A stretch of 37,775 bases of DNA from Escherichia phage vB_EcoP_K, in sequence record NC_047809.1. One strand, written 5' to 3'. The stretch's first letter is position 1; each line of letters begins with the position of its first letter. Made by a program: the position numbers and the translations under genes. Below are positions 10,455-33,429 of this stretch, one piece after another. The notes beneath the pieces are model-generated. The model was given only the letters and a program-made list of their open reading frames with translations, was not told the origin of the DNA and searched no databases.

Positions 10455-11416
10455 TGAGTTATACTTTCACAGAACATATAGCCAACGGTACGCAAGTAAC
10501 CTATCCCTTTAGCTTTGCTGGCAGGGATAAAGGCTATCTTCGTGCCTCAGATGTGATAGTGGAATCTCTTCAAGGTAACACTTGGATTGAGATTACATCT
10601 GGCTGGCAATTAACTGGTACGCATCAAATCACTTTTGATGTAGCACCCGTTGCAGGTTTGAAGTTCCGTATTCGAAGGGAAGTACAAAAAGAATATCCAT
10701 ACGCTGAGTTTGACCGTGGTGTTACCTTGGATATGAAGTCTTTAAATGGTTCTTTCATTCATATACTGGAGATTACACAGGAGTTACTTGATGGGTTTTA
10801 TCCAGAAGGGTACTTCATTAAGCAGAATGTAAGCTGGGGCGGCAATAAGATTACTGACCTAGCTGATGGTGAGAATCCAAAAGATGCAGTAAATAAATCA
10901 CAGCTAGATGCTATCGACAAGAAGCATACTGATTGGAACTCTGCACAAGATATAGAGATTGCTGGTATTAAGAGAGGAATGGTGTCTGGTGTATCTCATC
11001 GCACTATTCCTTGGTATATGGTCGCCTCCGGTGGAGAGCAAATCATTCGACCACCTTACTCATTTGATGATGCTATGGTGTTTATAAACGGTGTATTCCA
11101 GCATGAGCTAGCAGGTGCAGTATCAGTGGGGTATGATGTTATAACCCTGTCCGAGCCATTACAGGCTGGAGATGAAGTTTATGTGCTTATCGGTAGTCGC
11201 TTAACCCCACCTACAAGTGCGGATACTATCCTCTTTACACAAGCAGTGATTGAAGGTACACAATCTATCGACATTGTAACGGCTTTCCAACGTCTTGATG
11301 TATATTTGGATGGACTGTATCAACCTAATAATACTTATGAAATCGTAGGCTCTACTATCACTTTCAGTGAGCCATTGCCTGAGTGTGTCGTAAGTATGAA
11401 GTTACAACTAGTGTAA
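10454..11416 (+). CDS. Tail-fibre adaptor protein with T7 gp17 N-terminal-like domain, 320 aa
   Basis: N-terminus MSYTFTEHIANGTQVTYPFSFAGRDKGYLRASDV resembles the tail-attachment N-terminal domain of T7 tail fibre; no long fibre shaft; same arrangement as the adaptor of K1E/K1-5/SP6-type phages whose tailspikes are encoded at the right end. Confidence 0.7.
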   Translation: MSYTFTEHIANGTQVTYPFSFAGRDKGYLRASDVIVESLQGNTWIEITSGWQLTGTHQITFDVAPVAGLKFRIRREVQKEYPYAEFDRGVTLDMKSLNGSFIHILEITQELLDGFYPEGYFIKQNVSWGGNKITDLADGENPKDAVNKSQLDAIDKKHTDWNSAQDIEIAGIKRGMVSGVSHRTIPWYMVASGGEQIIRPPYSFDDAMVFINGVFQHELAGAVSVGYDVITLSEPLQAGDEVYVLIGSRLTPPTSADTILFTQAVIEGTQSIDIVTAFQRLDVYLDGLYQPNNTYEIVGSTITFSEPLPECVVSMKLQLV

Positions 11417-11425
11417 GGAGGTGCA

Positions 11426-15451: not shown

Positions 15452-15480
15452 TACATAGTTTATGTATCAGTGTCTTACGA

Positions 15481-19583: not shown

Positions 19584-19706
19584 ATGATGCCTATTGGCTA
19601 TACTGATACAGAGGCTATCTTCTGCACCGAAAGGGATGCAAAGAAGTTTATCTCTAAGCGTAGAAAAGCTGACTCTTACCAACCCAGAACTATTAAGGTG
19701 AACTAA
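19584..19706 (+). CDS. Short ORF reading into the primase start (open from 19467; start ambiguous), possible 5'-truncated gene remnant
   Basis: Frame open for 79 codons ending TAATG overlap with primase ATG; first in-frame ATG pair at 19584 lacks a clear RBS. Confidence 0.25.
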   Translation: MMPIGYTDTEAIFCTERDAKKFISKRRKADSYQPRTIKVN

Positions 19707-21694
19707 TGGCTATTATTAATAACATCCCGTGCCCTGCCTGCCAGAAGAATGGACACGATAAATCCGGCAATCATCTCATGATATTTGATGATGGTGCTGG
19801 CTATTGTAACCGTGGTCATTTCCACGATAACGGCAAGCCTTACTATCATAAGCCAGATGGTGGCATCGAGATCACCGAGTTGCCTATTACTGGCAATATC
19901 AAATATACACCTTCTCAATTCAAAGAGATGGAGAAGGAAGGGAAGATAAGCGACCCTAAGTTACGCGCCATCGCACTTGGTGGCATGCGTATGAAAGACC
20001 GATGGGAGGTCATGAATGAGCAAGAAAGGGCAGACCAAGAAGCAGAGTGGAAACTTGATGTTGAATGGTTCCTCACGCTTAAGCGTAAGAATCTTGTTTC
20101 CCGACACATTCGCGGCGACATTTGCGCATTGTATGATGTACGTGTCGGACACGATGAAGAGGGTAGAGTCTCACGGCATTACTATCCACGCTTCGAGAAA
20201 GGTGAACTAGTAGGCGCTAAGTGTCGCACATTACCTAAAGACTTTAAGTTTGGTCATTTAGGTAAACTCTTTGGTATGCAAGATCTTTTCGGGATGAATA
20301 CTTTGTCTCACGTGTTAGACAAGGGAAGACGAAAGGATCACTTGCTCATTGTCGGCGGCGAACTGGATGCACTAGCAGCACAGCAAATGCTCCTTGATTC
20401 TGCCAAGGGTACTAAGTGGGAAGGCCAGCCTTACCATGTATGGTCTGTCAATAAAGGTGAGTCTTGCCTTGAAGAGATAGTACAGAACCGTGAACACATC
20501 GCCCAATTTAAGAAGATTATATGGGGTTTTGATGGAGATGAGGTAGGGCAGAAGCAGAATCAGCAAGCGGCTCGCCTGTTTCCTGGCAAATCCTATATCC
20601 TTGAATACCCTTCTGGTTGCAAAGATGCTAACAAGGCATTGATGGCTGGCAAGGCTAAAGAGTTTGTTGATGCTTGGTTTAATGCCAAGTCATCTGATGA
20701 AGTCTTTGGTAGCCATATTAAATCTATCGCATCTCAAAGGGATAAGCTCAAGGCTGCACGTCCAGAGCAAGGGCTATCATGGCCTTGGCCTAAGCTGAAC
20801 AAGGTAACGCTAGGTATTCGTAAGAACCAGCTTATCATTGTAGGTGCAGGCTCTGGTGTAGGTAAGACTGAGTTCCTCCGCGAAGTGGTTAAACATCTTA
20901 TTGAAGAACATGGTGAATCTGTAGGCATCATTTCTACAGAAGACCCGATGGTCAAGGTGTCCCGTGCTTTTATCGGTAAGTGGATTGATAAGCGCATTGA
21001 GTTACCGCCAACCAATGACCCGAAAGAAGACGGATACCGTGAGGTGTTCGACTATACTGAGGAAGAGGCTAATGCCGCCATTGATTATGTAGCTGATACA
21101 GGGAAGCTGTTTGTAGCTGACCTAGAGGGTGACTATTCTATGGAGAAGGTAGAGCAAACTTGCCTAGAGTTTGAGGCTATGGGCATTTCTAATATCATCA
21201 TTGATAACTTAACGGGGATTAAATTAGATGAGCGTGCTTTTGGTGGGAAGGTTGGTGCACTTGATGAATGCGTCAAACGAATTGGTACTATCAAAGATCG
21301 ACATGCGGTTACGATTTTCCTTGTCTCTCACCTTACACGTCCTCCGGCAAACCGTACCCAACACGAAGAAGGTGGCGAAGTTATCCTTTCTGACTTCCGA
21401 GGCTCAGGCGCTATCGGATTCTGGGCATCTTACGCCTTGGGGATTGAGCGTAATACAAGAGCTGAAACGCTTGATGAAAGGACTACCACGTACATCTCAT
21501 GTGTCAAAGACCGCGACCAAGGTATCTACACTGGAACCAAGGTCATGCTTAAGGGTGACATTCAAACCGGACGTTTAATGGAACCACAAGCTCGTACTAA
21601 GTCATTTGATACAGGTGAAGCAAGGCAACAAGAAGTACCTGATTTACCAGACACTATAGAAGGGACTAACTTCGATGAAGAAAGTGAGTTCTGA
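19706..21694 (+). CDS. DNA primase-helicase (T7 gp4-like), 662 aa
   Basis: N-terminal zinc-binding CPACQKNGHD...CNRGHFH; helicase Walker A GAGSGVGKTEF; acidic C-terminus ending ..FDEESEF as in T7 gp4. Confidence 0.9.
   Translation: MAIINNIPCPACQKNGHDKSGNHLMIFDDGAGYCNRGHFHDNGKPYYHKPDGGIEITELPITGNIKYTPSQFKEMEKEGKISDPKLRAIALGGMRMKDRWEVMNEQERADQEAEWKLDVEWFLTLKRKNLVSRHIRGDICALYDVRVGHDEEGRVSRHYYPRFEKGELVGAKCRTLPKDFKFGHLGKLFGMQDLFGMNTLSHVLDKGRRKDHLLIVGGELDALAAQQMLLDSAKGTKWEGQPYHVWSVNKGESCLEEIVQNREHIAQFKKIIWGFDGDEVGQKQNQQAARLFPGKSYILEYPSGCKDANKALMAGKAKEFVDAWFNAKSSDEVFGSHIKSIASQRDKLKAARPEQGLSWPWPKLNKVTLGIRKNQLIIVGAGSGVGKTEFLREVVKHLIEEHGESVGIISTEDPMVKVSRAFIGKWIDKRIELPPTNDPKEDGYREVFDYTEEEANAAIDYVADTGKLFVADLEGDYSMEKVEQTCLEFEAMGISNIIIDNLTGIKLDERAFGGKVGALDECVKRIGTIKDRHAVTIFLVSHLTRPPANRTQHEEGGEVILSDFRGSGAIGFWASYALGIERNTRAETLDERTTTYISCVKDRDQGIYTGTKVMLKGDIQTGRLMEPQARTKSFDTGEARQQEVPDLPDTIEGTNFDEESEF
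21642..21664 (+). promoter_or_regulatory. SP6-class phage RNAP promoter (within 3' end of primase-helicase gene)
   Basis: ATTTACCAGACACTATAGAAGGG; two mismatches to the consensus upstream half; +1 G at 21659. Confidence 0.6.
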
Positions 21695-23033: not shown

Positions 23034-23252
23034 ATGAAAGCTATTAAAGTCAGTAAGGTTTGCTCTTGCGGTAAAGGTTATCGCAGTCGTATTGATGGTA
23101 AGTGTGGGCATTGCAGGTCTAAGAAAGAGGCTGCTTTGTTTGATAAGTACCACAATGAATTAGCATATAACTATCCTCATCTAACACCTAATTCTTTATT
23201 AGGACTTGGTTATAGGGTTAAATACTTTGGAGCAATCTATGAAATCAATTGA
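23034..23252 (+). CDS. Small zinc-ribbon-like protein, 72 aa
   Basis: CSCGKGY...CGHCRSKK (CxC..CxxC); GAGG upstream; overlaps DNAP start by 14 nt. Confidence 0.4.
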   Translation: MKAIKVSKVCSCGKGYRSRIDGKCGHCRSKKEAALFDKYHNELAYNYPHLTPNSLLGLGYRVKYFGAIYEIN

Positions 23253-25785
23253 TTGGAAGAAGGAAGCAGAAGGCCGCATCTTAGTGATGGATTCTGAGGC
23301 TAAAGGCCTGCTGGATGCTATCCGATATGGCCACCGCGAAGATGTGCACATCATTTGCTGCATGGATTTGCTTACTACAGAGGAGTTCCTCTTCTTTGAC
23401 CCATACGAGATGCGTGACCCTGAAGCAAGAGAACGCCTAAAAGAATGGGAAGGCCATCAAGATGGAACATTGGTTGACGGTGTTAACTTCCTTAAGCACT
23501 GCGAAGCCATCGTCTCACAGAACTTCCTAGGGTACGACGGCCTTCTATTTGAGAAAGCATTCCCTGATATCTGGAAAGGCTTTAACTATACCGAGAGACG
23601 CGGCAAGGGCAGACTCCGCGCTGACCTGTGTCCGGTACGCGTCATGGATACGCTGGTCATGAGTCGCCTGTTAAACCCCGATAGACGCCTCCCTCCGCAA
23701 GCATACGCCAAAGGCATGGGTAACGTAGCCCCTCACTCAATTGAGGCGCACGGCATTCGTATAGGCCGTTATAAGCCGGAGAACGAGGATTGGTCTAAAC
23801 TAACTGACCACATGGTACATCGTGTACGCGAGGACGTGGCGATAGGCCGTGACCTATTCCTCTGGCTATTTAACGGAGAATGGACGGAGCACAAACGCCG
23901 TGGCGTGAATAAACGCACTGGCCTAGGTATTGAGACAGCCTTCCACATGGAGTCCATTGTGGCGCTGGAGATGAGCCGTCAGGCCGAGCGTGGATTCCGT
24001 CTGGATATAGATAAAGCATTAGCACGATGCGAGGAATTGGACGCTAAGATTGATGAGACAGTCGCAGCGTTCCGTCCGCACATGCCTATGCGTATCAAGT
24101 CTAAACCTTTTAAACCGGAAGAAAAGAATGAAGTATGCCAACGCGCAAATGAGTATGGAGCTAGCAACAATATACCTACTGTCCTTGACCCCTCTCACTT
24201 TCTTCACGCAGAGAGACGAGGAGATCGCAAGACAGTATGGAGTGTCACTACTAAGTCTGGTGATTGGTCGGCTAGCGTCAAGAAAGACTTTCCTCACCTT
24301 AGAGGAAACCGTAATGACACGCCAAGCATCAAGTGGATTGGCGCTTACTCGCCTGTTACTTTCGAAGAGATTCCCTTGGGTAACAGGGATACAGTTAAGC
24401 AAGTGCTCTATGATTATGGATGGAAAGGTGTTGAATTTAACGATACCGAGCAAGCGCATCTCGATGAGCATGGCGTATTACCCAAGCCTTGGAGTGGGAA
24501 GATAAATGAAAAGTCCCTTACTTTATGGCAAGAGAGAGCCGCACGTGAAGGTAAAACAGTCCCTGATTGGTGCTTGGGTATCGCTGCATGGTACATACTC
24601 GTATCCCGTCGTGGTCAGATCCTCAACCGTGGTGACGTTGAAGCCTTCGACCAGAAGGGGGTGTGGCCTTCGCAAGCTGGTATACGAAAGTGTCGCGGCC
24701 TTGTACCTGTAGCATTTAACAAGGAGTTAGGAATCAATGCGCAGCAATACTACGAAAGGTACGGATGCTGGCCTACGTCAGACAAGGATGACGGAGAATG
24801 GCGTGTGCCAGCTATTGCTATTAGTATTGGAACTTCTACGTTCCGTATGCGTCATCGTAACGTGGTTAATATTCCTGCCCGTGGTTTGTATCCTTTACGT
24901 GATTTATTCATAGCCGGTAAAGGTAAGCTAATCCTTGGTTGTGATGGTGCTGGTCTTGAACTACGTGTACTGTCTCACTTCATGAATGACCCTGAATATC
25001 AAGATATTGTACTGCATGGTGACATTCACACCCATAATCAAATGAAGGCTGGTCTTCCTAAGCGTGACATGGCGAAGACATTTATATATGCCTTCCTATA
25101 TGGGTCTGGTATAGCTAACCTTGCAGCAGTATGTGGTGTTACTGAGGAAGAAATGGAGGAAGTTGTGGCAAGATTTGAGGTTGAACTACCATCTCTTGCA
25201 CGTCTTCGTGAGAATGTTATCGCACAAGGTAACAAGTTTGGCTACCTACAAGCACCTGATGGTCATTGGGGTCGCATCCGTATGTCTGGTGGTGAACTTA
25301 AAGAGCACACTATGCTTAACGTACTACTCCAGATGACTGGTTCTCTGTGTATGAAATACGCATTGGTCAGAGCGTTTGCAGTGATGCGCAAGGAAGGTGT
25401 GGCCTTAGATAGCATGGGAAACCCTTGCGGTATAGCTAACGTGCACGATGAAATCCAGATGGAAGTCCCTGAAGATGAGGTCTTGTATCTCAACTACGAC
25501 TTGCCTTTCACCTTAGAAGGGTTCGAAACAGAGAAGGCTGCTGTGAAAGCAGTGTTCGATGCAGAGGAGAAACGTGTTCATGTGGATTCTGAAGGACGTA
25601 TGTGGTCTGCTGCAAATCTCGTTAGTGTTGATGCTGATGCTGGTGTACTTCATTGCCAGCGTCGTTATCACCGTGCAGGGCATATCATTGCCGATGCAAT
25701 GACTTGGGCAGGTCAGTACCTGAAGATGCGTTGTCCGATGGCAGGTGAGTATAAGATTGGTGCAAGTTGGAAGGAAACACACTGA
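23239..25785 (+). CDS. DNA polymerase, family A (T7 gp5-like), 848 aa
   Basis: GGAG 6 nt upstream; 3'-5' exonuclease-type motif ILVMDSEAKGL; polymerase motif B ..RDMAKTFIYAFLYGSG.. and motif C ..VHDEIQMEV.. Confidence 0.9.
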   Translation: MKSIDWKKEAEGRILVMDSEAKGLLDAIRYGHREDVHIICCMDLLTTEEFLFFDPYEMRDPEARERLKEWEGHQDGTLVDGVNFLKHCEAIVSQNFLGYDGLLFEKAFPDIWKGFNYTERRGKGRLRADLCPVRVMDTLVMSRLLNPDRRLPPQAYAKGMGNVAPHSIEAHGIRIGRYKPENEDWSKLTDHMVHRVREDVAIGRDLFLWLFNGEWTEHKRRGVNKRTGLGIETAFHMESIVALEMSRQAERGFRLDIDKALARCEELDAKIDETVAAFRPHMPMRIKSKPFKPEEKNEVCQRANEYGASNNIPTVLDPSHFLHAERRGDRKTVWSVTTKSGDWSASVKKDFPHLRGNRNDTPSIKWIGAYSPVTFEEIPLGNRDTVKQVLYDYGWKGVEFNDTEQAHLDEHGVLPKPWSGKINEKSLTLWQERAAREGKTVPDWCLGIAAWYILVSRRGQILNRGDVEAFDQKGVWPSQAGIRKCRGLVPVAFNKELGINAQQYYERYGCWPTSDKDDGEWRVPAIAISIGTSTFRMRHRNVVNIPARGLYPLRDLFIAGKGKLILGCDGAGLELRVLSHFMNDPEYQDIVLHGDIHTHNQMKAGLPKRDMAKTFIYAFLYGSGIANLAAVCGVTEEEMEEVVARFEVELPSLARLRENVIAQGNKFGYLQAPDGHWGRIRMSGGELKEHTMLNVLLQMTGSLCMKYALVRAFAVMRKEGVALDSMGNPCGIANVHDEIQMEVPEDEVLYLNYDLPFTLEGFETEKAAVKAVFDAEEKRVHVDSEGRMWSAANLVSVDADAGVLHCQRRYHRAGHIIADAMTWAGQYLKMRCPMAGEYKIGASWKETH

Positions 25786-26067: not shown

Positions 26068-26090
26068 ATTTACTGGACACTATAGAAGGA
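26068..26090 (+). promoter_or_regulatory. SP6-class phage RNAP promoter
   Basis: ATTTACTGGACACTATAGAAGGA; +1 G at 26085. Confidence 0.75.
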
Positions 26091-26154
26091 AAGCCTAGGT
26101 AATCTAGGTTTATAAGGTAGTATAGGTAATTAAATAAATATAGGAGATATAAAT

Positions 26155-26532
26155 ATGTCTATGGTAACTACTCTGGTATTCGTGGCTCAATACTTTCGTG
26201 GTCTTGCTAATAAGTTCAAGTCCAAGGCTATCAAAGCTATTGAGGCTCGCATCGAAGCAGTACAGGCAGAGCAAGTTAAAGTTGAAGAACATCGTAGTTC
26301 TCAAATGATTGACTGTCATAACCGCTACTATGCATCTCGTGATGAACTAAATGCACGTCAAGTCAAAGAGGTAGAAGATATGCTGGCACGTCACCAGCAA
26401 GAGCGTGACAGCCTGAAAGCTGAATTTGAAGAGAACAAGGCATCAATTGCTCTTGTAAATCAAGCTGCATCTGACAGCCTGAAGAAAGAGATTGTTATGC
26501 TGGAAATAGAACTGGACAACTTGACTAAATAA
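26155..26532 (+). CDS. Hypothetical coiled-coil protein, 125 aa
   Basis: Strong AT-rich leader with GGAG; heptad-like charged sequence (..IEARIEAVQAEQVKVEE.., ..EIVMLEIELDNLTK). Confidence 0.5.
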   Translation: MSMVTTLVFVAQYFRGLANKFKSKAIKAIEARIEAVQAEQVKVEEHRSSQMIDCHNRYYASRDELNARQVKEVEDMLARHQQERDSLKAEFEENKASIALVNQAASDSLKKEIVMLEIELDNLTK

Positions 26533-26538
26533 GGAGTT

Positions 26539-26838
26539 ATGATGGAAGAAGTGATTCAAGCTAAACATTTAGGTATCATCTTTCGTGATCTAGAGCAGCG
26601 TAAAGTTGCAGGTCACACTCGTCTGGCTAAAGAAGACGATACAGCAATCACTACTGTGGAACAAGCAGATGCCTATCGTGGTCCAGAGTTTACTCAAGGT
26701 GAAACTTGTCATCAATTGAGCCTTTCACTTTGTGACACTATGGCTAGTGTAAATGTACAAGAGGTTGAAGATGGTGAATGTGTTAGTTATGTCTACCCTC
26801 TCGATACTATTGCACGTATTAAGGTAGTTCATAAGTAA
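26539..26838 (+). CDS. Hypothetical protein, about 98 aa
   Basis: AAGGAG upstream of ATG 26539/26542; coding-like composition. Confidence 0.5.
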   Translation: MMEEVIQAKHLGIIFRDLEQRKVAGHTRLAKEDDTAITTVEQADAYRGPEFTQGETCHQLSLSLCDTMASVNVQEVEDGECVSYVYPLDTIARIKVVHK

Positions 26839-26859
26839 TTACTGGACACTATAGAACAA
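26837..26859 (+). promoter_or_regulatory. SP6-class phage RNAP promoter (variant AGAACAA downstream)
   Basis: AATTACTGGACACTATAGAACAA; +1 G at 26854. Confidence 0.7.
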
Positions 26860-26915
26860 TAGGTCGGCTTAGTTCGGCCTATGATTGTGTAGTGTAACAA
26901 TAGGAGACTAAATAA

Positions 26916-27722
26916 ATGGCACGTGGTGATTTTGATTTTGGTGCTCAGGTTACTAAAGCTGAAGGTAAAGTATTTAAGAACCCTGAAGTTGGTGATCATG
27001 AAGCAGTAATCTCTGGCATCATTCATGTTGGTTCCTTCCAAGATATCTTTAAGAAAGGTAATACCACTGAAGTTAAGAAGCCAGCAAACTTTGTTCTTGT
27101 TAAGATTATCCTGATGGGTGACGACGATAAGAATGAAGATGATTCTCGCATGGAACAATGGATGGCTGTGCCTCTGAAGTCTGGTGATAAGGCAACACTG
27201 ACTAAGTTCCTGAATGCAGTTGACCCTAAAGAGTTGCTGGGTGGCTTCGATGATTTTATCGGTGAATGTCTGACTGCAACTATGTTTGGCTCTGGCGACA
27301 AGAATGATGATGGTACTTTCAAGTATGTTAACTGGAAAGGCTTTGGCGGTATGCCTGATAAGTTGAAGAAGCTTGTACTGGCTCAGGTAGAAGAGGAAGG
27401 TCTGTCTATGACAGGTCATATCACCTTCGACAAGCTGACCAAAGAAATCCTTGATGACATCCCAGCTAACTTGGTACGTCAATACTTCCTGAACGAGACA
27501 CCTCGTGGTAAGAACCTGTCTGTTGCTGGCTCTCACGTAGAAGCTATTATCAAAGCTGCTCGTGAAGAAGACCCTGAATGGAAGAAGGCTAAGAAGAAAG
27601 ACGAGGAAGATGCTACCCCAGCTAATCGTAAATCTCTGGATACTGGTGAGTCTGTTCCACAGGAAGTACCTGAAGCAGAAGATACTCCTGCACCGGAGAT
27701 GGATGAGGACGCGGAATATTAA
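26916..27722 (+). CDS. Probable ssDNA-binding protein (T7 gp2.5-like), 268 aa
   Basis: Position in replication module; highly acidic C-terminal tail ending in an aromatic residue (..PEMDEDAEY), the hallmark of T7 gp2.5; high-expression codon usage. Confidence 0.5.
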   Translation: MARGDFDFGAQVTKAEGKVFKNPEVGDHEAVISGIIHVGSFQDIFKKGNTTEVKKPANFVLVKIILMGDDDKNEDDSRMEQWMAVPLKSGDKATLTKFLNAVDPKELLGGFDDFIGECLTATMFGSGDKNDDGTFKYVNWKGFGGMPDKLKKLVLAQVEEEGLSMTGHITFDKLTKEILDDIPANLVRQYFLNETPRGKNLSVAGSHVEAIIKAAREEDPEWKKAKKKDEEDATPANRKSLDTGESVPQEVPEAEDTPAPEMDEDAEY

Positions 27723-27731
27723 GGAGAAAGG

Positions 27732-27950
27732 ATGAAAGTACAAATAGTAACCCTGCACTGCAAGAAAGGAATTACAACTCTTGGCGGCAACACTTTTCAC
27801 TCCTTCTCTGAAGGGGACACATATGCCGACCTGCACTACATCTGGCGCGACGGACAGCACGTGGTGAACTACAGCGACCCAGCTACGGGGAAACGCCACG
27901 GCGTATCGCTTCCGGCGCATGACATTGCTCAGGTGAACACAGTTTTATAA
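27732..27950 (+). CDS. Hypothetical protein, 72 aa
   Basis: AAGGAGAAAGG RBS; coding-like. Confidence 0.45.
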   Translation: MKVQIVTLHCKKGITTLGGNTFHSFSEGDTYADLHYIWRDGQHVVNYSDPATGKRHGVSLPAHDIAQVNTVL

Positions 27951-27970
27951 AGTCTCACGTGTGAGACAAA
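27950..27970 (+). promoter_or_regulatory. Conserved palindromic stem-loop, copy 4 (AGTCTCACGTGTGAGACAA)
   Basis: Begins 2 nt after stop at 27950; same core as other copies; a phage promoter follows 13 nt downstream. Confidence 0.45.
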
Positions 27971-27982
27971 TCGGTGTCCGGT

Positions 27983-28005
27983 ATTTACTGGACACTATAG
28001 AAGAG
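27983..28005 (+). promoter_or_regulatory. SP6-class phage RNAP promoter
   Basis: ATTTACTGGACACTATAGAAGAG; +1 G at 28000. Confidence 0.75.
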
Positions 28006-28055
28006 AAGAATTTTAATCGGCGATAATGCCATAACCAACAAAAGGAGAATTTAAT

Positions 28056-28427
28056 ATGTTCAAGATTGAAACTATCGTAAACCGTGTTGTTAAAGGTGCT
28101 GCTCTGGTATCCGTTGAGTCTTTCATTATCGTCGATGAAGCTGATCAACTGGTAGCTGGTACTAAGGCTTACGATACCCGTGAAGAAGCTCAGGCTAAGA
28201 TTGACAGCATGGGTAACTTCGCTGCTGGTCTGGAGTTCGCTCGTGCTTGCTTCCCTGAGCAGGCTGACAAAGCCCAGATCGGTAAGGCTAACATCGTAGC
28301 TGAATATCTGGATTGGATTGCTGCTGGTAAACCAGTGAAAGAAGTCAAAGCTGCTGAAGAAGCTGAAGCTCCGGCAGTAGAAGTGTCTGCACCGGAAGCT
28401 CCGGTTAGCGAAGAGGAAGAGTTTTGA
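28056..28427 (+). CDS. Highly expressed acidic protein of unknown function, 123 aa, acidic C-terminal tail ending in Phe
   Basis: Strong RBS AAAAGGAGAA; E. coli high-expression codon choice (CTG, CGT, GGT, GAA); C-terminus ..APEAPVSEEEEF; own promoter upstream and hairpin plus T-run downstream. Confidence 0.6.
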   Translation: MFKIETIVNRVVKGAALVSVESFIIVDEADQLVAGTKAYDTREEAQAKIDSMGNFAAGLEFARACFPEQADKAQIGKANIVAEYLDWIAAGKPVKEVKAAEEAEAPAVEVSAPEAPVSEEEEF

Positions 28428-28486
28428 TAATAGCAGGTGTAGCCTCTGTTAGTCCTAGTTGACTATCACGCTCACCTCATCTAATG

Positions 28487-28518
28487 CCCTGTCTGCCTTA
28501 GTGTAGGCAGGGTCTTTT
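28487..28518 (+). terminator. Rho-independent terminator candidate
   Basis: Imperfect stem CCCTGTCTGCC / GGCAGGG with loop, followed by TCTTTTG, 60 nt after stop of the 123-aa gene. Confidence 0.45.
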
Positions 28519-28544
28519 GCGTAATAGTTATTGGAGAATGAATT

Positions 28545-28817
28545 ATGCCGACTATTGAATCTCGAATTGAACTGGACATTAGCTACAATGCAATCACCAG
28601 ACAGTATATTGGGGTTGCCTATGATTACAAAACTGGTGAGAAGCTAGTGGAGGTGAGACAATGGGATGACTATTGGTTAAGACAGAACCTCCATGATGCG
28701 GTGTCCTCCTTCTTGAAGGAGTGGCCTACATGCGACCAAACTTCGACTTCGGAGCTACAGTATCGGAAGACAATAATCTCATCCTGTGGCCGACTGAAGG
28801 TAATCGAATCGCTTTAA
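28545..28817 (+). CDS. Hypothetical protein, up to 90 aa, overlapping the exonuclease gene start
   Basis: GGAGA RBS upstream of ATG 28545; 97-nt overlap with the next gene in another frame makes the 3' part or the exonuclease start uncertain. Confidence 0.35.
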   Translation: MPTIESRIELDISYNAITRQYIGVAYDYKTGEKLVEVRQWDDYWLRQNLHDAVSSFLKEWPTCDQTSTSELQYRKTIISSCGRLKVIESL

Positions 28818-29758
28818 TAGATGCCGATATGTTGCCTTACATCGTCGCGTATACAATCAGCGACATGACTTATGTACGAGCCACAACTCGTGTTAAGTCA
28901 GGACAAGTCCCATCAATCAAAGATACGCCTGAGTGTAAGCAAGCGTGTGACCGTGTGAACTCCTTGCTTAACTCTTGGGTGTATGCAGCAGAATGTGATG
29001 CAGCTAAGTTATTCATGACGAAATCAGAAGCTAACTTCCGTGTCCGCCTAGCATTCACCAAGCCTTATAAAGGTCAACGTAAGACCGAGAAGCCTCCATT
29101 CTTCTATGAATTGCGAGAGCATCTCTTAGAGGTTCACGGTGCAATCTTGGCAGATGGAGAGGAAGCAGACGACCTCATGAGTATCGCACAATGGGACAGC
29201 CACCGCCGCTTCCAGCAAGATACAGGTAACGAGTTCCCTATCGGTAGTCCAGAGCATAAAGCATTCTCTGATACTTGCATCGTTTCCTTGGATAAGGATT
29301 TGATGATTGTTCCCGGTTGGCATCTACAGCCGGGTCAAGAGAAGAAGTGGGTAGAGCCTATGGGCTGGCTTGAGCTACGCCGTAAGGCTAATGGGCAAGT
29401 CAAAGATCTAAAAGGTGCTGGCCTCATGTTCCACTATGCACAGATGATTATCGGTGATGATATTGATAACTATGCTGGCATACCAGGTCGTGGTGCTAAA
29501 TATGCCTATGATCTTCTCAAAGATTGTAAGACAGAGAAAGAGTTGTACATGGCAGTGCTGGGTGCTTACAAGGCTAAGTTCGGGCATGGACAAGTTAAGA
29601 TTAAGAATTACCGAGGTGGTTATCGTATCGGCAAAGCCTTTGACCTGATGCTTGAATGTGGTCGCCTAGCTCACATGGCTAGATTCAAAGGTGATATATG
29701 GCGAGCCGATAAGAACCCAATCTTGTGGGGAGATGATGCGGAATGGTTAGCAAATTAA
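28721..29758 (+). CDS. 5'-3' exonuclease (T7 gp6-like), 345 aa
   Basis: ..NRIALIDADMLPY.. and ..GDDIDNYAGIPGRGAKYAYDLL.. correspond in pattern to T7 gp6 (..GILVMDGDWLVF.., ..KGDITDGYSGIAGWG..). Confidence 0.8.
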   Translation: MAYMRPNFDFGATVSEDNNLILWPTEGNRIALIDADMLPYIVAYTISDMTYVRATTRVKSGQVPSIKDTPECKQACDRVNSLLNSWVYAAECDAAKLFMTKSEANFRVRLAFTKPYKGQRKTEKPPFFYELREHLLEVHGAILADGEEADDLMSIAQWDSHRRFQQDTGNEFPIGSPEHKAFSDTCIVSLDKDLMIVPGWHLQPGQEKKWVEPMGWLELRRKANGQVKDLKGAGLMFHYAQMIIGDDIDNYAGIPGRGAKYAYDLLKDCKTEKELYMAVLGAYKAKFGHGQVKIKNYRGGYRIGKAFDLMLECGRLAHMARFKGDIWRADKNPILWGDDAEWLAN

Positions 29759-32124: not shown

Positions 32125-32298
32125 ATGGAAGGTAAACTATATAGAGGGTACTTCGGTAACTTATATAGAGTAAGCCCTCTTGGTTTTGTATTGACCTCCA
32201 ATGATGAAGGTGCAATGTGGTTCCTAAGTGCCTATGGTTCTGACTTAGCATACTTTAAAGAGGCAATATTTAAAGGTGTGATGAAGGAGGTGAAATGA
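32125..32298 (+). CDS. Hypothetical small protein, 57 aa
   Basis: ATG 2 nt after previous stop, GAGGA upstream; overlaps ligase start by 4 nt. Confidence 0.4.
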   Translation: MEGKLYRGYFGNLYRVSPLGFVLTSNDEGAMWFLSAYGSDLAYFKEAIFKGVMKEVK

Positions 32299-33242
32299 AT
32301 ATCTTCCAATTCCTAGGTCTTCCAGAAGACCACCGCAATCACCCATTCATGCTGGTGAAACATCGCGGTGAAGTACCTGAGAAGAAATTAACTTTTCCAT
32401 GTTATGCACAGGTAAAACGAGATGGGATATTTAGTGCTGTGGTTGTTCGCAACGATGGTGTCGTTGGTGTCTTTGGACGCACTGGAAAGAAACTGGCTAA
32501 CACGGAAACCTTGGAAGAATCTTATTCAGCTTTCCCTACTGGCATTTATCTCGGCGAGTTGCAATCTATGGCTGTTGATGTCTACCTTGAAGCACTTTCT
32601 GGAGTAGTTAACCCTAATCGCACAGAGCCACTTGATTTCATAGGCCAGCAGATTAAAGACAACCTGTATATTGACTTCTTCGATATGTTAACTATTAAGG
32701 CATTCCATGATGGATTCACTGATGTTTCTTATCTCAAACGTTACGATGCTTTACATCGTCGCATCGGCGCTCATCTTAGCGGGTACAACGCTATCCTTCC
32801 TATTACTCCTTGCCATAATGAGCGAGAAGTTGAAGCGTTTGCGCAAGAGCAAATAGACGCAGGCCGAGAGGGTGCTGTGTTTAAACTGGACTGTGATTAT
32901 GAAGCAGGCCACAAAGGTTATCGTCAGACTAAAGAAGTCCGTAAGGTAACTTATGACCTTACTTGTATTGGCTTTGAAGAAGGCAAAGGTAAGTACAAAG
33001 GTAAGGTAGCTAACCTCATTTTCAAATGGAAAGGAGGCAAGACAATCAAAGCTATGTTAGGTAAAGGGTGGACTCATGCAGATGCAGAACAGATGTTCCA
33101 CGATATTAAACACGGTGGACGATTGAATGTCATTGGTAAAATCTTTGAAGTAAAAGGTCTTCAGGATTCAAGCAAGGGCAACATTCGTCTGCCCAAAGCT
33201 GGAGAATTAAGACATGACAAAGATGAACCAGATTTCTTTTGA
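32295..33242 (+). CDS. ATP-dependent DNA ligase (T7 gp1.3-like), 315 aa
   Basis: GGAGGTG RBS; adenylation motif I VKRDG (KxDG) near the N-terminus; size. Confidence 0.8.
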   Translation: MNIFQFLGLPEDHRNHPFMLVKHRGEVPEKKLTFPCYAQVKRDGIFSAVVVRNDGVVGVFGRTGKKLANTETLEESYSAFPTGIYLGELQSMAVDVYLEALSGVVNPNRTEPLDFIGQQIKDNLYIDFFDMLTIKAFHDGFTDVSYLKRYDALHRRIGAHLSGYNAILPITPCHNEREVEAFAQEQIDAGREGAVFKLDCDYEAGHKGYRQTKEVRKVTYDLTCIGFEEGKGKYKGKVANLIFKWKGGKTIKAMLGKGWTHADAEQMFHDIKHGGRLNVIGKIFEVKGLQDSSKGNIRLPKAGELRHDKDEPDFF

Positions 33243-33429
33243 TAGCATGAAGGCAACTCGTGCAGTTGAGGTAGCAGAAGCTATCTTTGAAACTTTATCC
33301 TGTGGCATGGAAGTGCCATATACCTTACTAGCTGATGCAGAAGAGCTTGGTCTTTCTGTAGAAGCTATCCAAGAGAAGGTTGAAGAACTCTATGGTACAG
33401 ACGAAGAAGAAACCGACGATTTCATTTGA
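33214..33429 (+). CDS. Hypothetical acidic protein, 71 aa
   Basis: ORF overlapping ligase 3' end; acidic C-terminus ..EELYGTDEEETDDFI. Confidence 0.4.
   Translation: MTKMNQISFDSMKATRAVEVAEAIFETLSCGMEVPYTLLADAEELGLSVEAIQEKVEELYGTDEEETDDFI

Follow-up and report, generated by a model that had tools for sequence, protein, structure and literature searches.

In this study, gene 18 of Escherichia phage vB_EcoP_K was found to encode a small protein, gp18, whose acidic C-terminal tail ends in the same kind of tip as the tails of two other proteins of the replication module, the primase-helicase and gp16. The stretch of DNA analyzed comprises 37,775 nucleotides (nt) of sequence record NC_047809.1 and is hereafter called the window. 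The reading that we favor, tentatively and with slightly less than even confidence, is that gp18 serves the replication module as an abundant accessory protein and that its tip docks on the receptor used by the primase-helicase and gp16; by analogy with phage T7, this receptor would be the DNA polymerase. The C-terminus of gp18, a protein of 123 amino acids (aa), reads ...APEAPVSEEEEF, the last six residues being SEEEEF. All three tails reported by a first-pass annotation of the window are present, namely ..DEESEF on the primase-helicase, ..DEDAEY on gp16 and ..SEEEEF on the 123-aa protein.

The tip of gp18 behaves differently from the linker that precedes it. All 120 close relatives end in EEEF, although their linkers show substitutions and indels, and S118, E120, E121, E122 and F123 are invariant in the alignment of relatives. 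When 1.84 billion cluster representatives were searched for homologues, no more than 24 related clusters came up, and almost all of their proteins are about 110-127 aa long. Together with the window protein, 21 distant representatives of 50%-identity clusters, whose identity to the window protein is 29-75%, formed a set of 22 sequences. Sixteen of the 22 end in Phe, two have Phe as the penultimate residue, one has an evidently corrupted C-terminus, and three lack an aromatic residue. Across the family, the tail after residue 95 (linker plus tip) varies from 13 to 32 aa, its linker cannot be aligned, and its median net charge is -9, which is also the charge of the tail in the window protein. 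A free linker with a fixed tip is, as far as sequence can tell, what a tethered docking motif looks like. The tail might instead act non-specifically, as an acidic bristle for solubility or charge balance, and its terminal aromatic would then play no part in docking. The Ala/Pro/Glu/Val composition of the linker is typical of generic flexible spacers, and a few family members do without the aromatic. Nevertheless, a bristle appears very improbable: the tip is invariant among the close relatives and the aromatic stands at or next to the end in 18 of the 22 sequences while the linker is unconstrained, aromatic ends are rarer in general (8 of 52 proteins in T7, 14 of 130 open reading frames (ORFs) in the window), and the tip co-varies with that of the helicase, as described below.

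Tips were compared in 19 phages from Molineuxvirinae, Colwellvirinae and unclassified relatives, whose hosts include Escherichia, Erwinia, Pectobacterium, Klebsiella, Edwardsiella, Vibrio, Aeromonas, Pseudomonas, Marinomonas, Shewanella and Ralstonia. A tip was defined as the five residues ending at the aromatic, and significance was obtained by label shuffles. The helicase ends in an acidic run followed by Phe or Tyr in 19 of 19 phages; gp16 does likewise, except in two Uliginvirus phages, where 'GE' follows the Phe. An acidic-aromatic end was found on the polymerase (...DTH/...ETH) or the exonuclease in none of the phages compared. Within a phage, tips were more similar than in the shuffles for the pair helicase-gp16 (p = 5e-5) and for the pair gp18-helicase (p = 0.0015). 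Within this set, Tyr-ended gp18 proteins occur only in Aeromonas phage MJG (three tips: GASY / EATY / DAAY) and Klebsiella phage ZK1 (ESEY / GAEY / AEEY), members of different subfamilies. A Tyr end on both helicase and gp16 is seen in three phages, and MJG and ZK1 are two of these (p about 0.018). Residues beyond the aromatic of gp16 occur, within the 19-phage set, only in Nerthus and Achelous, and gp18 is likewise extended there. This pattern provides moderate evidence that the three tails would be read by one co-evolving site; which protein carries that site is not indicated by the co-variation.

The window itself also indicates that such tails are not scattered at random. Of the 130 plus-strand ORFs with 30 aa or more, 14 have an aromatic C-terminal residue and 8 have an acidic tail (at least four acidic residues in the last eight); both features coincide in 4, against 0.86 expected (hypergeometric P = 0.005). 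All four belong to the replication module: helicase, gp16, gp18 and the ATP-dependent DNA ligase. In T7, such tails are found only on gp2.5 and gp4 among the 52 proteins. The first-pass annotation had presented gp18 as the third bearer of a tail of this type; gp18 does carry the tail, but it is not necessarily the last to do so, as the ligase ends in DEPDFF. In 12 of 16 related phages the C-terminus of the ligase is D-F or D-Y, a few residues after a conserved RHDK, and to judge from these sequences the ligase may be a fourth client of a C-terminal docking code. As a separate observation, a 71-aa ORF (33214-33429, plus strand; PHROG 5860) overlaps the end of the ligase gene and ends in ...DEEETDDFI, with Phe in the penultimate position.

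A reader of the tail on the host side was also considered. The tip of the E. coli single-stranded DNA-binding protein (SSB; ...DDDIPF), an acidic run and a terminal Phe with a free carboxylate, is read by many partners, and proteobacterial SSB tips are conserved as ...IPF. The gp18 tail might mimic this tip or another acidic host tail and titrate its readers (nucleases, helicases, restart factors), or the domain of gp18 might inhibit a host factor; the first-pass annotation had also envisaged a host-factor inhibitor, one that uses the docking motif. The acidic stretch, terminal Phe and free carboxylate follow the general hub logic of the SSB C-terminus, the high abundance expected of gp18 (see below) suits a stoichiometric inhibitor, and the family is kept in phages that infect many different proteobacteria, as would be expected if the host target were conserved. 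However, the gp18 tip lacks the Ile-Pro of SSB and varies with the phage rather than with the host; it tracks the helicase tip of its own phage, including the two independent switches to Tyr. Furthermore, gene 18 lies inside the replication module and is co-inherited with it, no match to anti-defence or defence models was found, and gp18, in contrast to SSB, is not an OB-fold (oligonucleotide/oligosaccharide-binding fold) tetramer. A role as host mimic or host inhibitor is thus improbable, the inhibitor proposal being weakened by the co-variation with the phage's own tails.

The expression signals of gene 18 point to a highly produced protein. The promoter assigned to gene 18 by the first-pass annotation proved to be a perfect copy (0 mismatches) of the site at 15480, and the window holds six matches to this phage-RNA-polymerase promoter where shuffled sequences gave 0. 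The ribosome-binding site is strong, as had been reported (AAGGAG, 8 nt 5' of the ATG), and most gp18 homologues are preceded by AGGAG-type sites. Gene 18 ends in the in-frame stops TGA TAA TAG (28425-28433, plus strand), the only triple in-frame stop in the window, and doubled stop codons occur in 8 of the 22 homologues; stacked stops are consistent with a very highly translated gene. The candidate terminator downstream likewise stood up to scrutiny: its G+C-rich stem of 11 base pairs (28486-28513) has a folding free energy of -17.8 kcal/mol and is followed by CTTTTG, and 15 of 16 related phages carry an equivalent, a strong hairpin plus T-run at most 60 nt 3' of the gp18 stop (-16 to -23 kcal/mol). 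In most of those phages a promoter-like element, typically 60-70 nt 5' of gp18, recurs elsewhere in the genome; in Era103, Vp670, PP1, KL01 and phiY2 the other copy stands directly 5' of the major capsid gene. A self-contained unit of promoter, gene and terminator, present in 15 of the 16 phages and kept across two subfamilies, speaks for very high, probably stoichiometric, production of gp18.

Codon usage agrees with the high-expression character claimed for the gene earlier. The fraction of optimal codons (for E. coli) in gene 18 is 0.76, the highest of 26 complete genes, and the partial capsid gene has 0.70. In T7, gp2.5 and capsid protein 10A rank first on the same index (0.69 each), which indicates that the index tracks abundance there. 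Together, gp15, gp16, gp17 and gp18 have the four highest fractions of the 26 complete genes; the partial capsid gene would rank second. Two further promoters, with 2 and 3 mismatches to the consensus, precede gp15 and gp16, and those at 26068, 26837 and 27983 all feed the one terminator at 28486-28519. This suggests that the region 26068-28519 is a high-output expression block within the replication region, and gp18 apparently reaches the abundance of the capsid protein.

The folded part of gp18 is also under constraint. The AlphaFold2 (AF2) model used here was built from a diverse alignment and has a mean predicted local distance difference test (pLDDT) score of 85; an earlier model from close relatives only (pLDDT 61) was excluded from fold searches. 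Block-averaged pLDDT is about 88-95 for residues 1-90, 82 for 91-100 and 58-62 for 101-123. The model predicts strands at residues 3-13 and 16-26, helices at 42-51, 53-65 and 71-89, and a low-confidence tail from about residue 93. The domain bears the conserved motif GKANV(I/V)A.YL.W..GKP, and K37, A45, G58, A64, K77, A78, N79, A82, W87 and G91 are retained in at least 90% of the distant relatives, whose domains are 30-81% identical to that of the window protein. At distances where the polymerase is 53-64% and gp16 33-52% identical, the gp18 domain is 49-54% identical; its conservation is comparable to that of the polymerase, helicase, exonuclease and ligase. Since the domain is conserved like the replication enzymes and is kept even in lineages that have lost the tip, it must have a constrained function of its own, and the tail would be a usually retained, though not strictly required, means of delivery. 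This argues against the idea that gp18 is a mere tail decoy or timer, in which an excess of tails displaces those of the helicase and gp16, for example late in infection, and the domain is only a carrier. Such a decoy would suit the very high expression, the capsid-type promoter and the motif type shared with the helicase and gp16, and in T7 tails do compete for common sites on the polymerase (PMC10359462). A carrier domain would not, however, be expected to hold a near-invariant motif, nor to be retained in tip-less lineages, and the tail is the less conserved part of the protein. We therefore give little probability to a decoy, and the competitor proposed by the first-pass annotation is disfavored.

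Searches for a relative of gp18 gave no assignment. The gp18 domain had no match in Pfam or NCBIfam, and gp18 had none among the PADLOC defence and anti-defence models at E values up to 1, in the Protein Data Bank (PDB) by sequence or profile searches, or in the T7 proteome by profile. With the structural model, Foldseek found nothing in the PDB at E up to 0.001, and the only significant match in BFVD was an uncharacterized family member. Thus, the homology and structure searches that the first-pass annotation had recommended were run, and clear homology to a protein of unrelated known function was not found. Two candidate families were rejected. A resemblance to DUF1508/YegP (UPF0339) was accompanied by neither a PF07411 match nor profile similarity to a bona fide member. 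Membership of the T7 gp2.5 family (PF21265) was discarded on the lack of a Pfam match, an hhalign probability of 0.2% and a predicted fold that is not OB.

The description of gp16 as 'SSB-like' in the first-pass annotation has no support from homology. No match to gp16 was found in Pfam or among PDB sequences, its family reached a probability of 0.35% in a profile-profile comparison with the gp2.5 family, and no relationship to any T7 protein was found at the sequence or profile level. A weak NCBIfam match to a phage replication initiation protein family (E = 0.0017) was far below the cut-off. The label is thus drawn from size, position and tail, because gp16 has no detectable relation to gp2.5 or to a solved protein. 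No SSB was identifiable by homology anywhere in the window.

These results bear on the possibility that gp18 is itself a small, abundant nucleic-acid-binding protein, an atypical SSB or architectural protein, in which the tail regulates DNA binding and recruits partners. In that case either gp18 or gp16, or the two together, might be the 'missing' SSB of SP6-like phages. A domain followed by an acidic tail, a terminal aromatic and top expression is the profile of T7 gp2.5, no SSB is otherwise recognized in the window, and gp16 is unrelated to gp2.5. The conserved K37, K77, N79 and W87 could make a binding surface, and the BFVD fold search gave weak matches, far from significant (E about 0.27), to small podovirus proteins that bear the name 'single stranded DNA binding protein'. 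Charge was dropped as an argument against DNA binding: the core of gp18 has a net charge of -3 (12% Lys + Arg) and the DNA-binding core of gp2.5 has an equal one (-3, 14% Lys + Arg), and charge therefore has no power to exclude such binding. DNA binding would, moreover, be compatible with docking of the tail. On the other side, the predicted beta-hairpin and three helices are not an OB fold, no fold or profile match to any DNA-binding family rises above those non-significant hits, and gp16 is nearer to gp2.5 in size and keeps its tip more strictly. On balance we consider a nucleic-acid-binding role unlikely, although it is the main rival of the docking reading; the decoy, the host mimic and the acidic bristle are less well supported than either this role or tail docking within the replication module.

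Under the docking reading, gp18 would be a core and very abundant accessory of the SP6-like replication module in Molineuxvirinae, Colwellvirinae and their relatives. Its conserved 95-residue domain would carry the activity or binding surface proper to gp18, and the disordered, strongly acidic tail, all but the last few residues of which serve as linker, would tether the tip. The tip, of the form acidic-acidic-x-Phe/Tyr-COOH and of the same kind as those on the primase-helicase and gp16, would most likely plug into a common receptor, a basic surface with an aromatic pocket. We infer that the tip docks at all and that its receptor is shared, and, by analogy with T7 gp2.5 and gp4, that the receptor lies on the phage DNA polymerase; gp18 would thereby be tethered to, or exchanged at, the replisome. 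In alignment with T7 gp5, the polymerase has an insertion of about 130 aa (residues ~250-400) at the place of the 76-aa thioredoxin-binding domain, and this insertion is rich in conserved basic residues (ERRGDRKTVW ... VKKDFPHLRGN).

Several findings weigh against this reading. The thumb insertion of the polymerase cannot be aligned with the T7 thioredoxin-binding domain, and the front basic patch of T7, KWKRR, is absent from these polymerases. When polymerase, helicase and ligase were scanned for residues with convergent changes in the two all-Tyr phages, variable columns were all that emerged. The tip similarity between gp18 and gp16 is not significant (p = 0.14), the penultimate residue of gp18 is variable (E, D, T, A, S) where the helicase and gp16 have a near-invariant Glu, and the label shuffles behind these comparisons ignore phylogeny. 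In addition, the tip is absent in 3 of the 21 distant representatives, all singleton metagenomic contigs of about 1 kb, and in an isolated phage, Proteus phage PM 116, and it is therefore not indispensable. In the three distant members no alternative reading frame restores the aromatic, and they were not found in IMG/VR; two of the contigs show an upstream gp16-like ORF in which the tip is kept (...DDSKDF, ...DEDEEF). The gp18-like tail of one of these two is Lys-rich, not acidic. In PM 116 (11001-11420), the 3' part of the gp18 homologue is rearranged, with loss of the last ~16 codons, those of the tip included, and of the terminator. It is the sole rearranged case among ten matching Proteus phage records and constitutes a natural tail-less allele. 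Accordingly, the docking-tail interpretation of the first-pass annotation survives in part: the tail behaves as a selected element, with an invariant tip and co-variation, but the basic patch that T7 would lead one to expect is not conserved.

A broader version of the docking reading, possible but doubtful, is that the replisome of SP6-like phages, which are not known to have a sliding clamp, is organized by a C-terminal code of acidic residues and F/Y read by one hub, probably the polymerase, whose clients would be the helicase, gp16, gp18 and perhaps the ligase. Here gp18 would be a hitherto unrecognized subunit with a new fold, produced at levels like those of the capsid protein and lacking a counterpart in T7; its role could be that of the missing SSB or architectural protein, or of a factor for processivity or exchange.

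Comparison with known systems helps to place the protein. In T7, the acidic tail of gp2.5 and its terminal Phe mediate contacts with the polymerase and helicase, and deletion of Phe232 abolishes the polymerase contact while single-stranded DNA binding is unaffected (PMC10359462; PMC4124056; bioRxiv 10.64898/2026.02.22.705581). D231 and F232 proved invariant in 16 gp2.5 homologues. Like gp2.5, gp18 consists of a folded domain and a disordered, strongly acidic tail with a conserved terminal aromatic, and both have their own phage promoter and the top codon index of their phage; unlike gp2.5, gp18 is half the size, is predicted to form a beta-hairpin and three helices in place of an OB fold, and shows no sequence or profile similarity to it. 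The tail of the T7 gp4 primase-helicase (...DTDF) has the same motif type, and gp18 tips resemble those of the helicase of their own phage; however, the gp4 tail sits on a hexameric motor and holds polymerases at the fork, whereas gp18 has no recognizable enzymatic domain. T7 gp5.5 is another abundant small protein and binds host H-NS. It resembles gp18 in size (~100 aa) and in being encoded between the polymerase and exonuclease genes, but it has no sequence similarity to gp18, its end (...TVREVF) is not acidic, and its codon index is ordinary (0.52). Ribosomal stalk proteins (P1/P2, bL12) likewise combine a domain, a flexible acidic linker and a conserved tip, the mobile tip fishing for partners. 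Their sequence and cellular system are unrelated to gp18, and the likeness lies in the three-part design, by analogy only.

Over the 1.2 kb around gene 18, identity to the K1E/K1-5 group of Escherichia phages (Vectrevirus, Molineuxvirinae, Autographiviridae) is 97-99.9%, and the window represents most of a K1E/K1-5-type genome in permuted order. At the protein level, gp18 shares 97-99% identity with its counterparts in K1E-like phages. The profile of PHROG 4429, a family without assigned function, matches residues 1-123 (E = 2.3e-58), and 22 of 22 distant members fall in it. The label in K1E and nearly all related records is 'hypothetical protein', with putative ATPase in one record, and the protein is listed as 'Unknown' in PMC4837284. 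A literature search found no paper on gp18, with the proviso that the original SP6 and K1-5 genome papers, which lay outside that search, might already remark on the tails. The local gene order is DNA polymerase (gp13) ... gp15, gp15.5, gp16, gp17, gp18, gp19, 5'-3' exonuclease (gp20), endonuclease VII, phosphoesterase, kinase and ligase. Gene 18 thus stands between the gp16-like gene and the exonuclease gene, as in SP6-like genomes, and the order polymerase...gp16-(gp17)-gp18-exonuclease is kept across the related phages compared. Phage records with gp16 number 214 and those with gp18 211, with an identical distribution over genera. The coordinates of the features discussed are collected in Table 1.

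Table 1. Features of gene 18 and of related replication genes in the window
Feature	Position	Strand	Remarks
Gene 18	28056..28427	+	123 aa; K1E/K1-5 gp18, SP6 gp20; PHROG 4429
N-terminal folded domain of gp18	28056..28340	+	Residues 1-95; long beta-hairpin, then three helices, as predicted by AF2
Acidic Ala/Pro/Glu/Val linker of gp18, flexible	28341..28406	+	Residues 96-117
Tip SEEEEF of gp18, putative docking motif	28407..28424	+	Residues 118-123
Phage-RNA-polymerase promoter of gene 18	27983..28005	+	ATTTACTGGACACTATAGAAGAG, 23 nt, perfect consensus
Shine-Dalgarno AAGGAG of gene 18	28042..28047	+	8 nt 5' of the ATG, read from the sequence
Terminator	28486..28519	+	Hairpin GCCCTGTCTGCC-TTAGTG-TAGGCAGGGT, then CTTTTG
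Promoter 5' of gp15	26068..26090	+	2 mismatches to consensus; transcripts would run through gene 18 to the terminator
Promoter 5' of gp16	26837..26859	+	3 mismatches to consensus
Primase-helicase (gp9)	19706..21694	+	Ends in ...NFDEESEF; annotated as primase-helicase in K1E
DNA polymerase (gp13)	23206..25785	+	Candidate receptor by analogy with T7; no acidic tail; C-terminus ...ETH/DTH conserved
gp16	26916..27722	+	268 aa; conserved core and acidic tail, ends in ...EMDEDAEY
ATP-dependent DNA ligase	32295..33242	+	Ends in ...RHDKDEPDFF

Some observations concern the neighbors of gene 18. The next gene, gp19 (28545-28817, plus strand; 90 aa), belongs to a PHROG annotated as 'DNA repair protein' and overlaps the start of the exonuclease gene (28721-29758, plus strand) by ~97 nt in another frame; in K1E the two genes are annotated with an overlap of similar length, 88 nt. 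A 363-aa ORF at 26829-27920 on the minus strand is antisense to all of gp16 and gp17. It is probably a spurious by-product of codon usage, because all annotated genes of related phages lie on the plus strand. No RNA family was found by Rfam in the interval 27700-28800.

In sum, gene 18 was already known as an uncharacterized gene, and T7 had already provided the principle of docking. The novelty is that such a tail is borne by a dedicated and conserved small protein of unrecognized fold, apparently made at capsid level, a component that T7 lacks. Should the proposal prove wrong, little would be lost, since gene 18 is already on record as a 'hypothetical protein' and routine pull-downs and phage genetics suffice to test the prediction. 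Coordinated DNA replication has its minimal model in the T7 replisome, where the contacts between proteins depend on two acidic tails that end in Phe. In a large sister group, to which K1E, K1-5 and SP6 belong as well as many phages of Klebsiella, Salmonella, Vibrio and Pseudomonas that are being considered for therapy, there is a third and possibly a fourth tail-bearer, and the third, gp18, appears from its expression signals to be among the most highly expressed proteins of the infection. The searches of the window also show that homology does not reveal the SSB of SP6-like phages. If its tail docks as in T7, gp18 would be a missing piece of the replisome in these phages, and deletion of a single residue would provide a simple experimental handle on it.

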